Counted from the stretch's first letter, positions 28,735-45,280 are shown. The stretch is DNA of 64,000 nt from a virus (IMGVR_UViG_3300020429_000539:108263-172262); one strand, 5' to 3'. Numbers and translations: made by a program. The notes: generated by a model not told the origin, from the letters alone.

Positions 28735-29307
28735 ATGACAGATATACCAGATCAGCCAACAGGCGATTTTGAGTTCAACAGTTTGAACGATTTGACAGAC
28801 GTAACTATGATTAGCTCTTCAGGTGAACAATCCTACATATATAGTGGAACAACTCTGACTTGGGATTCCACGGAATCTTCTATATCTTGGTCTACAGATA
28901 ATAAGGATTTGCAAGAGGCCATGAATATGCTCCAACGACAGAAAGAATGTCGCATTCCTACGTTCAAAGACCTTGATGACACAGAGCAAAGTCGTCTTGA
29001 GCAAATCATGCAGTCTGATACCGTATATGTTCGTGAAATCAGACCTGATATGGAAGACGCCGGTTCGCTGAATGACTATACCGTTAAAGTTGAACTTTCG
29101 AATACGAAGGACTTTTTGATTTCCGTCGCTATTATTGAAGGTACCTATCAGACCCAGGGTAACTTGGTAAACATAGGCGAAGCTGTGAGGACATTGTGCC
29201 TCATGATGACCTTCCAAGGTCATGATGTAATACTAGACGGAAAGGCATTTAGACCATATGACTATCGAAAGGGAACCGGACGACGTAGCGATAGAGATAC
29301 CGATTGA
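28735..29307 (+). CDS. paralog-family protein (C-terminal 'G-[YHW]-[DE]-V' family), member 1
   Basis: C-terminal 'LCLMMTFQGHDVILDGKAFRP'. Confidence 0.55.
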   Translation: MTDIPDQPTGDFEFNSLNDLTDVTMISSSGEQSYIYSGTTLTWDSTESSISWSTDNKDLQEAMNMLQRQKECRIPTFKDLDDTEQSRLEQIMQSDTVYVREIRPDMEDAGSLNDYTVKVELSNTKDFLISVAIIEGTYQTQGNLVNIGEAVRTLCLMMTFQGHDVILDGKAFRPYDYRKGTGRRSDRDTD

Positions 29308-29767
29308 GAGCTTTCAGCAAATGGGTTTCTCTCGCAAATCAATGAATCAGTACGACTACAGCAATGGCGGCAGCCTAGAGCGATTAGCTAAACAAATCGA
29401 AGACGAACACAAAGAGTTTGAGAACAAACAAAGAGAAGCCTTGCAGAAAGAGGAGAGAGCTAGAAAACAGGTGCGCTTTCATAACTCTATGGCAGCTTTA
29501 GAGCGTATCATGGAATCTCCCATACTGTATATACGTAAAGAAGTAGGCAATCGTTTTCAGAATAACTCTGCGGGTTCGTTTCGTATTGTTGTCGCAGACA
29601 ATGAAGAAATCAAAGACAGTTCTTGCCTATACGACTCACGAGATTTTGCAGCAAACGTAAACGAGTCAGGTGTGGATGACCTGATCAAAACTTTTGCGAA
29701 ATCCTTTACGTATCAGGGCTACGACGTATATGTTGATGGCGAGTTGTTCAGGCCGTCTTCGATTTAG
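29258..29767 (+). CDS. paralog-family protein, member 2
   Basis: C-terminal 'FAKSFTYQGYDVYVDGELFRP'. The start may be the internal Met at 29321. Confidence 0.5.
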   Translation: MTIEREPDDVAIEIPIESFQQMGFSRKSMNQYDYSNGGSLERLAKQIEDEHKEFENKQREALQKEERARKQVRFHNSMAALERIMESPILYIRKEVGNRFQNNSAGSFRIVVADNEEIKDSSCLYDSRDFAANVNESGVDDLIKTFAKSFTYQGYDVYVDGELFRPSSI

Positions 29768-29770
29768 CAG

Positions 29771-30298
29771 GTGAAACAAGGTCAGATTTATACTATCGAT
29801 ATGGCACGATTTGCAAGCGAAGCGGCTCGGTCGAGAGCGGAAAAGCGCAAAGAGTTCGAACAAGAACTCGCTGCTCGCCGCGAGGCTGTTATCAAACAAA
29901 ATCCTGTCAAGGTATGGGATGAAAACGACCAGCTTATTCCCGAAGCCGTATCTCATTTTGTTGGCGTTGAGATGATGAGGGAAAAGCTTGAGCAAGGCGG
30001 ACCCTTCTATATGAGGGCCTGCTATTTCCGTAAATCGGATTGCTATGCTGTACTGTTCAACAACAAACCATTGAATGACGCAAACGATAACCTGCGCATT
30101 TGGACCTCAACAGCTATCTACCTGAACTCCCCTACGCTTGTTGAGGGGATTATGGTGGCTATCGCCAATGTTCTGACTCTTCTTGGATATGAGGTACAAA
30201 TCAGCGGAGCAGCCTTGATCGAGAACGGCGAATATGACCCGTTCACGCTCAGATCGCCGCCTGATGCTGAGCTAGAGGGAGAAGATGGACCAGAATAA
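29771..30298 (+). CDS. paralog-family protein, member 3
   Basis: 'IANVLTLLGYEVQISGAAL'. Confidence 0.55.
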   Translation: MKQGQIYTIDMARFASEAARSRAEKRKEFEQELAARREAVIKQNPVKVWDENDQLIPEAVSHFVGVEMMREKLEQGGPFYMRACYFRKSDCYAVLFNNKPLNDANDNLRIWTSTAIYLNSPTLVEGIMVAIANVLTLLGYEVQISGAALIENGEYDPFTLRSPPDAELEGEDGPE

Positions 30299-43078: not shown

Positions 43079-43617
43079 TGGCAAAAGACAAACCGAAGAG
43101 AGCAAAGAGACCCGACCCAAAGCCGTTCGTTCATGAGTTTGAACCGAAGGCGATGGAGAAGATTATCTCGCTTAGCAGCGATGTCTATGTCTGTTGCGCG
43201 ATGATTCCTGAATACCATATCGAAGAAGAGGTACCCTCTCCCTACGGGGGCCGAGCCTGGACCAAGCGAACCGACCTTGTTCAGGCATTCATGATGAGCC
43301 TCAATACAGAAGAGTTTGCGACGAACTACTGTACGCCGATTACGCCTCGTTATATGGTGACTGACGTATCGAGCGACAGGCACCTTCTTGACCTCTATTC
43401 AATCTGTGACGCCGCTTGTAACATCCTTACGTTTACAGGTATGAGAGTGCTGTGGCATCCTCGAACCTCGCAGCACGGCCCTATCGACTGGACGACCGAC
43501 CTTTACGAAGACAAGAACTGGACGACGAGACTGCGTGGCAAGGGCTATCGAACCCACAAAGTCATGAACCTGCCAGACCACAAAGAAGTCATTAGGCAGT
43601 TAATGGGCGAGCAATGA
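43078..43617 (+). CDS. paralog-family protein, member
   Basis: 'AACNILTFTGMRVLWHPRTS'. Confidence 0.55.
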   Translation: MAKDKPKRAKRPDPKPFVHEFEPKAMEKIISLSSDVYVCCAMIPEYHIEEEVPSPYGGRAWTKRTDLVQAFMMSLNTEEFATNYCTPITPRYMVTDVSSDRHLLDLYSICDAACNILTFTGMRVLWHPRTSQHGPIDWTTDLYEDKNWTTRLRGKGYRTHKVMNLPDHKEVIRQLMGEQ

Positions 43618-44309
43618 GAAACTACGACCCTCAAGAAAACATCAAGGAGATTGGCGACCTCTTGTATGCCATTTCTGGTGGCGCAATGAGTTTTGCTAAG
43701 GCGGCACAGAAAGCAGGCGTCAACGTCGAAGAGCTTTCTGATATGCTCTCAGATATTGTCGCAGAGAACAGCCCGAAGTCTCGGTTCCGCGACCTTCCCT
43801 CCCAACTCGACTACGAGCAACTTATAACTACCGATTACAATGCAGGTCGCCTAAAGCGCATGGATAGGGTTTTGAATGCAAATCGCGTCATCGTTCTTCC
43901 GGTGGCTGTGGGGCGATACGGCAGCAAGGTATACGTCAGCCCTTGTGTGATAAACCTCGACACGCTTGACCATGAGCTTACCTATTGCGAGATATCCGCT
44001 GACCCTTATATATTGGAAGACGGCACAGCTATGGCTGGTGGTATCTTTTTTACTACCGGGAGAATCGAATGGCTAAACAAAAGAGTCTACGAAGATTGCC
44101 GACAGGCGGCTCTTTTTCTTACGATGTCAGGCATCGAGGTCTACATGCCCAAGGCCATAGAGAACGACGAGTACCTGGACTCATCGAGCGCCGAGACCGT
44201 GAGCATCGACTTGACATGCTTGCCAAAAGCATTGTTCGTCGCGTCTTTGACGAGGCTAAAAGAAAACGCGCACAAAGAATTGAACTTGAGCGAGTCAGGC
44301 GACAAATAG
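43614..44309 (+). CDS. paralog-family protein, member
   Basis: 'ALFLTMSGIEVYMPKAIEND'. Confidence 0.55.
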   Translation: MRNYDPQENIKEIGDLLYAISGGAMSFAKAAQKAGVNVEELSDMLSDIVAENSPKSRFRDLPSQLDYEQLITTDYNAGRLKRMDRVLNANRVIVLPVAVGRYGSKVYVSPCVINLDTLDHELTYCEISADPYILEDGTAMAGGIFFTTGRIEWLNKRVYEDCRQAALFLTMSGIEVYMPKAIENDEYLDSSSAETVSIDLTCLPKALFVASLTRLKENAHKELNLSESGDK

Positions 44310-44329
44310 AAGAGACCAGAGCATTCGCG

Positions 44330-45280
44330 ATGAAAAACAATTGGTGCGTTCTCGGAGCGGTTCAAATGACCAACGATAAATACAATGCTCTGTTTCATCA
44401 ACAATACACTTATAGCTCAGAAGAGATTGACCGGAACAATGCTATGCAGCAAGCAACGCGAGTAGCGACGGGACAAATACTACCTGCCGACATTCCTATC
44501 GAAGACCTCATCGATGATGATGATATTCGTGACCTCACGGGTGAGACGGAAATCATGATCGCTCCTGTCTTGATGCTTTTCCAAACAAACTTCAGAGGAC
44601 AGAACAATAAGTATACCATTCTCTCGATATCTCTCGTTCGTCATCCGAAGCATTGGAAAGACAACGATGTTCACCATATGCCTCTAGAGATGCATCGCTT
44701 CGTTGATGTATATAGCGACGGCAGCGCTATCCCCACGACCATTCAATACGCTCAGAGCATTGAATATATCGACAGGTTAGTCAAGAACTATGCTCGCATC
44801 TACACGATGATGGGGTATGAGGTTTATATGCCTGTTCAAGAAGAGCAAGAGGAGCCAAGCGAAGTAGAAGCGCTGACGATGCAGGCTGGATTATCAGGTT
44901 TCGCTTCCTTTTCAGGCAGGTTATCGCAAACAGCGAAGCTGCTCACACCCTATCCTGAATGCGTTCTTTACCGGCCACACAAAGATGAAGAACGTCGCAT
45001 AAGAGCGATTACCAAGCACCTTCACACTGCTTTCGTTGACAACATCCATACAGCGATGGTTTCAAAGATTGGAACCAGGCGAGGAAGCATCGTTGACAAA
45101 GACAAAATAGGCCGTCTCAAAGAACTCGGCATTGAGTTTGAACCTGAGTACAAGTATGAGGGCAACACGGCTGCCCATGCCGAGCAGAGATACAAGGAAA
45201 AATATGGCGACGGCGTTCGCAGGTCGGCAAGGATGCCGAGCATGGGCGACAATCCATGCGGCGAGATCGATTTGCGCTAA
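44330..45280 (+). CDS. paralog-family protein, member (largest)
   Basis: 'YARIYTMMGYEVYMPVQEEQ'. The start was moved to 'MKNNW' after the upstream stop. The ORF-table start at 44069 overlaps the previous gene by 240 nt. Confidence 0.5.
   Translation: MKNNWCVLGAVQMTNDKYNALFHQQYTYSSEEIDRNNAMQQATRVATGQILPADIPIEDLIDDDDIRDLTGETEIMIAPVLMLFQTNFRGQNNKYTILSISLVRHPKHWKDNDVHHMPLEMHRFVDVYSDGSAIPTTIQYAQSIEYIDRLVKNYARIYTMMGYEVYMPVQEEQEEPSEVEALTMQAGLSGFASFSGRLSQTAKLLTPYPECVLYRPHKDEERRIRAITKHLHTAFVDNIHTAMVSKIGTRRGSIVDKDKIGRLKELGIEFEPEYKYEGNTAAHAEQRYKEKYGDGVRRSARMPSMGDNPCGEIDLR

Follow-up and report, generated by a model that had tools for sequence, protein, structure and literature searches.

Eleven related genes in two tandem arrays of a probable marine megaphage genome

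Two tandem arrays of one gene family

The window considered here is the whole 64,000-nucleotide (nt) stretch of DNA, and the subject is a set of eleven plus-strand genes within it that lie in two tandem arrays: array A, with four adjacent genes (28735-30878), and array B, with seven (40187-45280). To judge from their predicted proteins, the eleven belong to one paralogous family of common ancestry, recognizable by an element of about 45 residues made up of a hydrophobic helix, the motif T-x-x-G-[aromatic]-[D/E]-V and then [FY]-x-P. An earlier note on this DNA had counted 11-12 members. Eleven of these stand; the twelfth (39330-40157) encodes a protein of the DUF1444 family (Pfam 9e-7; NCBIfam PRK13668 3.5e-9) and was rejected as an eighth member of array B, since it lacks the motif and reaches an hhalign probability of only 0.1 against the family profile. 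No family member matches the DUF1444 profile PF07285. The ten peptides quoted in the earlier note all occur verbatim, and an eleventh, TAAGVEVMTGT of A4, completes the first array; the sizes run from 148 to 316 amino acids (aa), not from 160 to 316 as first given. Ten of the genes are solid protein-coding genes and A4 is a probable one. Both arrays thus consist of at least three adjacent, co-oriented genes of supported shared ancestry. Adjacent start and stop codons overlap by 1-14 nt or sit 1-20 nt apart in each array, and because of this overlap or near abutment each array looks like one operon, in which translation of the packed genes is probably coupled.

The common ancestry is supported by several profile comparisons. 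Hidden Markov models (HMMs) were built from ten members at a time and searched against the 585 six-frame open reading frames (ORFs; 64,014 translated residues) of the window; the omitted member came first among the non-training ORFs in nine cases out of eleven (expectation value E 7e-6 to 0.018), with B3 ranking second and A4 third. When a profile of A1-A3 and their orthologues was compared by hhalign with one of B2-B8 and theirs, the two arrays aligned at E 1.6e-5 with a score of 34.5 over the helix and the motif, whereas 60 column-shuffled versions of the A alignment scored 9.3 +/- 2.0 with a maximum of 17.2 (z about 12 for the real alignment), so that the shuffled control proposed in the earlier note leaves the shared motif statistically supported. 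In the all-against-all comparison that it also proposed, each paralogue was represented by four sequences, drawn from the window and from three related metagenomic genomes (L007/L008, L015 and L013), and the invariant glycines fell in exact register in 28 of the 55 best local profile alignments and within a few residues in six more. The A1-A2 alignment covers 86 columns (E 3.2e-8). A pattern fitted to the members matches just these eleven ORFs among all translated residues, against 0.16 in shuffles, a result that speaks to specificity only, the pattern having been derived from the members themselves. No DNA-level repeat underlies the similarity, which is therefore old and at the protein level, and a DNA repeat or gene conversion was rejected as its source on the same ground. 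One further ORF, at 52095-52451, was tried as an extra member (E 0.02-0.05) and rejected as a hydrophobic, membrane-like sequence without the motif.

The members of array A

A1 (28735..29307, +, 190 aa) carries its motif glycine as G162, with the codon at 29218, in ...LCLMMTFQGHDVILDGKAFRP; it was ranked first in the leave-one-out search (E 0.0022), and its orthologue is 77% identical with a ratio of nonsynonymous to synonymous substitution (dN/dS) of 0.25. A2 (29258..29767, +) is 148 aa long if it starts at the ATG at 29321 and 169 aa long if it starts at 29258, the L008 orthologue using the short form and P0010 retaining the long N-terminus; its glycine codon is at 29717 (...FAKSFTYQGYDVYVDGELFRP), the protein ends 16 residues past this glycine, and it too was ranked first (E 0.0017; dN/dS 0.04). 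A3 (29771..30298, +) has 165 aa from the ATG at 29801 in an ORF that opens with GTG at 29771, its orthologues starting MARFA..., and has the glycine codon at 30185 (...IANVLTLLGYEVQISG...GEYDP); it was ranked first at E 0.018, shows a dN/dS of 0.09 and aligns in register with B4 (E 1.1e-4). The phrase L..GYEV in A3 had suggested a response-regulator receiver domain, which was rejected for want of a Pfam match (PF00072) and of a conserved Asp. A4 (30285..30878, +, 197 aa; glycine codon at 30579; ...FASILTAAGVEVMTGTNIRHLNP) adjoins A3 with an overlap of 14 nt and is the weakest member, with a leave-one-out E of 0.53 at rank 3 and a dN/dS of 0.085; by hhalign it aligns with the other members in the same register at E 0.011, and its glycine is in exact register in five of its ten pairs (B4, B5, B6, B7 and B8).

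Two features of the DNA of array A may be recorded here. A2 and A3 share a reading frame at 29765-29773, where only a TAG stop and one codon lie between them, and a public gene call, P0035 (346 aa), reads this TAG as Gln to give a fusion; programmed readthrough seems unlikely, because the two genes occupy different frames in the relative L008. The 88-nt gap before A1 (28647-28734) holds a stem (ACGGGCT...AGCCCGT), then a T run, then a GAGGAG ribosome-binding site, and because of this arrangement array A may begin its own transcription unit. No promoter-like site stood out in the gap, and a scan for sigma-70 promoters gave fewer sites than shuffled sequences.

The members of array B

B2 (40187..40867, +, 226 aa) begins with the domain at its N-terminus and has the motif glycine at G88 (codon 40448; ...MVCTMMTVWGLDVYHPDGEGEWTLFKP). 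It was ranked first at E 0.0058, and its orthologue is 55% identical (dN/dS 0.33); between orthologues the 114-aa tail shows 38% identity as against 70-71% for the domain, and its conserved C-terminal end is acidic and aromatic (...DDFEKYP-x-x-ED). B3 (40869..41702, +, 277 aa; glycine codon 41208; ...YANCLMLMGYTVWLPR) has an acidic tail of net charge -19 that terminates in ...KPWWKFW, an end conserved in P0013; with a leave-one-out E of 0.083 it came second, and it aligns in register with B8 at E 1.3e-3. B4 (41702..42586, +, 294 aa; glycine codon 42359; ...LAIALTQQGYEVYYSC) has an extra N-terminal region of 129 aa and was ranked first at E 5.7e-4 (dN/dS 0.09). B5 (42596..43078, +, 160 aa; glycine codon 42908; ...TANILTIEGWDVFYIPR...VRLFDP) is a near-minimal member, ranked first at E 0.0036, with an orthologue 88% identical. 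In B6 (43078..43617, +, 179 aa; glycine codon 43438; ...AACNILTFTGMRVLWHPR) Arg replaces the acidic residue of the motif; it was ranked first at E 0.014, has a dN/dS of 0.07 and aligns in register with B5 (E 1.5e-3). B7 (43614..44309, +, 231 aa; glycine codon 44130; ...AALFLTMSGIEVYMPK) carries an 82-aa N-terminal extension, for which only a sub-threshold HTH_psq match (E 0.04) was obtained, and was ranked first at E 1.4e-4; it is the quickest-evolving member (48% identity, dN/dS 0.42). B8 (44330..45280, +) has 316 aa from 44330 or 304 aa from 44366, and its motif glycine is encoded at 44813 (...YARIYTMMGYEVYMPV). Of all members it is the most central, ranked first in the leave-one-out search at E 6.7e-6; its orthologues P0002 and P0003 are 58-65% identical, and its tail of 130 aa terminates in ...NPCGEIDLR, of which NPCGEIDL is conserved between orthologues.

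The shared element and its predicted fold

The ancient core of the family amounts to some 45-60 residues in which T-x-x-G caps a buried hydrophobic helix, a beta-strand of the form [aromatic]-[D/E]-V-[aromatic] follows and an [FY]-x-P turn comes next; to this core each member adds its own N- and/or C-terminal extension. Only the G and the V are invariant, the T being nearly so, and the position after the aromatic residue is D or E in nine of the eleven members, T in B3 and R in B6, so that this Thr and the mostly acidic position are the only polar sites conserved. In most members a further small motif, [LF][FY]x-P, sits 10-40 residues downstream. The earlier description of the motif as C-terminal holds for A1-A3; the other members have 56-164 residues after the glycine. 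Nearly all of the leave-one-out signal comes from HMMs covering -20 to +24 around the glycine; those covering the 70 residues upstream (-90 to -21) gave no cross-paralogue signal in the same tests, and several profile pairs reach 35-40 residues upstream. At least 87 residues precede the glycine in every member, and in the three that have no N-terminal extension it lies at residue 88-105. Between orthologues identity is 83% for the core, 78% for the upstream 70 aa, 65% for the N-terminal and 61% for the C-terminal extensions. These values fit a core that closes a folded alpha/beta unit of about 115 residues, of which the last helix and strand are best conserved. The shared unit has a net charge of -1 to -9, the isoelectric point is 4.3-5.7 in ten of the eleven members, and no signal peptide or membrane segment is evident in the translations.

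AlphaFold2, given the B8 domain with the ten paralogues as alignment, predicted a long beta-hairpin, two short strands, a 17-residue helix and the motif strand, with a predicted local distance difference test score (pLDDT) of 71.9, a predicted template modelling score (pTM) of 0.57 and a pLDDT of 84-92 in the helix and strand. Full-length B5, modelled with 20 sequences (pLDDT 55), gave a helix, three strands, a long helix (86-103) and a strand (107-110), elements that come in the same order as those of the B8 model when counted from the glycine. Neither model had a significant fold match. Among the weak structural matches RNase H-like folds are over-represented (NurA, Cas9 RuvC, Argonaute PIWI, terminase nuclease and retroviral integrase cores), the deltaretroviral integrase cores at a non-significant Foldseek E of 0.07-0.2, and the resemblance in the models would be at most a topological echo.

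Relatives and evolution

Within the reach of sequence methods the family is confined to one clade. When a profile of the eleven domains was run exhaustively against 1.84 billion representative proteins, only ten proteins passed E <= 1e-3, all of which are the paralogues or their orthologues, the best match, P0005, being identical to B4. The earlier note had allowed that the members might belong to unrelated known families, a possibility that did not hold, as Pfam, PHROGs, NCBIfam and PDB sequences all lacked a match: Pfam, PHROGs and NCBIfam gave only sub-threshold noise for whole members and separate extensions, and the best match in a PDB sequence profile search had an E of 1.2. Among 50,697 phage records, neither B8 nor A2 had a tblastn match at E <= 1 and megablast of the whole region found no match; scans with B4 of IMG/VR and of GTDB species genomes found no relative; and in the huge phages LR756502.1 and LR756511.1 the +/-20 kb around the SPFH and VWA homologues yielded no members when scanned with the family HMM.

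All three related genomes hold the 4+7 members in unchanged order, with HMM scores of 38-76 bits. Their distance from the window can be gauged from a 757-aa protein encoded upstream of array B, which is 75% identical in L007/L008, 62% in L015 and 56% in L013. In these relatives, too, array A follows the same genes (sigma, NUDIX, HA and a 112-aa ORF) and array B follows the 757-aa protein and the DUF1444 gene. Compared with L007/L008 the orthologues show 48-88% identity, dN/dS of 0.04-0.42 and dS of about 0.6-2.2, with A1, B2, B7 and B8 the fastest. Six assemblies under different accessions (L001-L006) have 100% nucleotide identity over array B and the DUF1444 gene (39330-45280, about 5.9 kb), which suggests either a clonal population of wide distribution or overlapping Tara samples that were assembled more than once. 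These are old duplications: a one-to-one orthologue of each paralogue is present in the three related genomes, and every copy is individually maintained under purifying selection. The earlier picture of rapidly diversifying paralogues is accordingly not borne out by the fixed gene order, the low dN/dS and the identical assemblies, and the copy-number variation that was to be looked for in related phages is absent from these relatives, apart from apparent disruptions in L013.

These disruptions affect A1 and B7, whose orthologues in L013, the most distant relative, are each split into two ORFs (L013:1209-1809 and L013:15117-15823). The two members have the highest or near-highest dN/dS, and the splits may reflect a frameshift, pseudogene formation or a fault of assembly.

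The gene neighbourhood

The neighbours of the arrays include a sigma-70-like factor, a NUDIX protein, an HA-domain protein, an SPFH protein, small membrane proteins and the DUF1444 protein. No structural module was recognizable around the arrays. The 757-aa protein, which has Fn3-associated and CHB_HEX_C domains and no signal peptide, precedes array B at gaps of 10-29 nt; it has no similarity to the 745-aa or the GH56-like protein and no relative in the PDB. Between the arrays (30879-37005, +) lie about ten small predicted membrane proteins and a 557-aa SPFH/band-7 protein. This spacer varies while the arrays are conserved: L013 and L015 lack the SPFH gene, and the spacer of L013 encodes a cytosine-5 DNA methylase.

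Array B is adjoined downstream by a second tandem pair of paralogues (45586-46227 and 46224-47072, +; 33% identity, E 7e-28). The pair shares an FGS...DIDI motif reminiscent of nucleotidyltransferases, has no Pfam or NCBIfam match and also occurs in L007, L013 and L015.

Possible functions

Since the family has few conserved polar residues, an acidic unit and no signal peptides or membrane segments, its members are most likely soluble, non-enzymatic binding modules. The two operons would then co-produce a set of adaptors or regulators inside the infected cell, in which the common fold would serve as a scaffold and the divergent surfaces and tails would each contact a different host or phage partner, several of the tails closing with conserved short motifs. 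From this scaffold and different-partner reading it follows that the family may be a specialized intracellular set that serves host takeover or some accessory purpose, and not the virion or catalysis, a tentative proposal to which a probability of roughly 0.4 is given; a role in host takeover or anti-defence would be compatible with the data.

Several points weigh against the intracellular adaptor proposal. Its functional part is argued indirectly, and the strict one-to-one orthology and mostly low dN/dS are unusual for host-interaction genes in an arms race. Homology across the entire unit of about 115 aa, upstream part included, is presumed; the upstream 70 residues carry no cross-paralogue signal and the B5 model is poor. 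The phage identity of the genome is itself presumptive, with no capsid or terminase gene seen in about 84 kb and the element not present in IMG/VR. Finally, the 757-aa protein directly upstream of array B is possibly virion-associated, which would favor a late or structural role.

The earlier note had put first the idea that the members are packaged internal or ejected proteins, loaded into the capsid like the phiKZ inner-body or T4 internal proteins, possibly processed by a protease, and injected with the DNA. The position and missing signal peptide of the 757-aa protein would suit this, as would the stable copy number and purifying selection expected of structural components, and paralogue arrays of this size are known for the inner-body proteins of jumbo phages. 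However, none of the members matches the Pfam profile phiKZ_IP (PF12699) at E <= 1 or any PHROG, and no capsid, portal, tail or prohead-protease gene was recognized within about 84 kb. The members are acidic, whereas the DNA-associated internal proteins of T4 are basic. The earlier note had added that a nearby trypsin-like protease could process the family. The protease is real (10147-10893, Pfam Trypsin 1.1e-11, GDSGSP), but 18 kb separate it from array A downstream of it and 29 kb from array B, its neighbours are the unrelated DUF6065, GlnA-like and other metabolic genes and MoxR/VWA genes, and nothing links it to the family. No prohead-type protease was found in the window; the only protease nearby is this one of the S1 trypsin type, a family to which no prohead protease is known to belong. 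Packaging is on this evidence unlikely. Similar weight attaches to the view, here considered unlikely, that the eleven paralogues form one hetero-oligomer of fixed stoichiometry with the helix-strand element as interface, for example by edge-strand pairing, whether free in the cell or membrane-associated, possibly with the SPFH and membrane-protein cluster between the arrays. Co-expression suggested by the overlapping or close start and stop codons, strict retention of all eleven members and their order in four genomes, and the concentration of conservation on one structural element speak for such a complex; yet the model buries the strongly hydrophobic conserved helix in the core of the monomer at the highest pLDDT (84-92), unlike an exposed interface, A1 and B7 may be dispensable given their apparent disruption in L013, and the SPFH gene is missing between the arrays of L013 and L015.

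A related and distinctly doubtful suggestion is that helix-G-aromatic-acid-V-...-[FY]xP is a docking module through which eleven passenger regions, namely the variable extensions at either end and the conserved motifs in which they close, would meet at a single hub in the infected cell or the particle; if true, this marine megaphage clade would have a cargo-delivery system of its own or else its own hetero-oligomeric machine of fixed make-up. That the element is instead a short docking or targeting peptide acquired independently by unrelated proteins, in the manner of encapsulin or microcompartment cargo-loading peptides, is barely credible. Detectable similarity does span only about 45 residues with no signal upstream, and the N- and C-terminal extensions differ widely, but the position of the glycine at residue 88-105 in the three extension-less members fits a domain of fixed size, the A1-A2 alignment and the upstream reach of other pairs exceed a peptide, and orthologues conserve the upstream 70 aa almost as well as the core. 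The element is moreover embedded, hydrophobic and the best-modelled part of the fold; it is internal in eight of the eleven members, rather than a short terminal amphipathic peptide on a flexible linker, and two tandem arrays are what duplication predicts. The members might also be a degenerate, inactivated half of an RNase H-like fold (DDE, RuvC or integrase type) kept as a nucleic-acid- or protein-binding module, as the recurrence of such folds among the top structural matches and the usually acidic residue in the strand after the helix would allow. This is very unlikely: the first strand has no conserved acidic residue, B3 has Thr and B6 has Arg at the acidic position, A2 stops so soon after its glycine that the second half of the fold cannot exist there, an acidic domain disfavors nucleic-acid binding, and neither model shows a complete five-stranded alpha/beta/alpha RNase H-like fold with a significant structural match.

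Comparison with known families

In sequence the eleven genes form a new family; in kind it is a familiar one, a viral multigene family restricted to its lineage, and it reveals no new mechanism. With the phiKZ inner-body or internal head families they share many diverged, side-by-side paralogues in a very large phage and the lack of an enzymatic signature; they differ in having no sequence match to phiKZ_IP and no recognizable head genes or prohead protease adjoining. The MGF360/505 genes of African swine fever virus (ASFV) and the tandem families of poxviruses are likewise lineage-specific arrays, strongly diverged around a small conserved core, and are thought to encode non-enzymatic host-interaction proteins; the likeness is by analogy and not homology, and copy number in those families differs between strains, whereas here number and order are fixed in four genomes. 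Anti-CRISPR clusters and SUKH/Imm arrays also group small, acidic, non-enzymatic proteins of orphan sequence. Members of such anti-defence or polyimmunity clusters are, however, usually mutually unrelated or of known Pfam families, unlike the related members without a Pfam match described here, which show no sign of rapid turnover. The predicted order beta-beta-beta-alpha-beta and the weak recurring matches recall the first half of an RNase H-like fold, from which the family departs in the lack of significance, of catalytic carboxylates and, in A2, of the second half.

Orphan genes number in the hundreds in huge phages, and lineage-specific expansions offer one of few clues to the purpose of this extra coding capacity. 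The present family is a clean case, with eleven members, a defined core, no relatives among the 1.84 billion representative proteins and fixed membership in four genomes, and it corrects the notion that such arrays must evolve fast.

The genome and the rest of the window

In metagenomes of Tara and other marine samples the region is found in identical form on contigs that reach 477,468, 488,051 and 502,023 bp, none exceeding 1 Mb. The best matches in a phage collection are to uncultured huge phages, LR756511.1 (595 kb) for the VWA protein (45% identity) and LR756502.1 (642 kb) for the SPFH protein. The earlier assignment to a large phage agrees with these contig sizes and nearest relatives, and the genome is probably that of an uncultured marine megaphage of about 0.5 Mb; its phage nature is put no more strongly because no capsid or terminase gene was seen in the approximately 84 kb examined, the window and about 20 kb of extra flanks (L009, L010) having yielded no recognizable capsid, portal or tail gene. 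Neighbouring genes are mostly orphans. The window encodes RtcB, a TilS-like PP-loop protein, a dCMP deaminase, two Dam-type methylases and one N6/N4 methylase, in addition to the sigma-70-like, NUDIX, GlnA-like, GH56-like and SPFH proteins, a MoxR ATPase with its VWA/DUF2201 partner, many small membrane proteins and orphans, and has no tRNA.

Around the S1 protease, an unusual plus-strand block at 6949-14163 comprises genes for a GH56 hyaluronidase-like protein (Pfam 1.3e-20), a glutamine-synthetase-like protein, DUF6065, the protease, a MoxR AAA ATPase and a VWA/DUF2201 metallopeptidase-like protein, and a second DUF6065 copy lies at 23221-24075. A 140-aa protein (14768-15190, +) has a sub-threshold match to a response-regulator receiver (E 4e-4; 21 bits against a cut-off of 30.2 bits), which would be odd for a phage-like genome. 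Toward the end of the window the G+C content climbs from about 0.47-0.53 to 0.59-0.62 at 56000-62000, where the genes include an AAA_25 DnaB-like helicase/primase-type ATPase and an HATPase_c_3 protein, and a Fic gene (55222-55932, -) directly precedes the rise. An assembly chimera was excluded here, as the Fic and AAA_25 genes are also present in the relative L007, and the G+C-rich stretch may be an old insertion.

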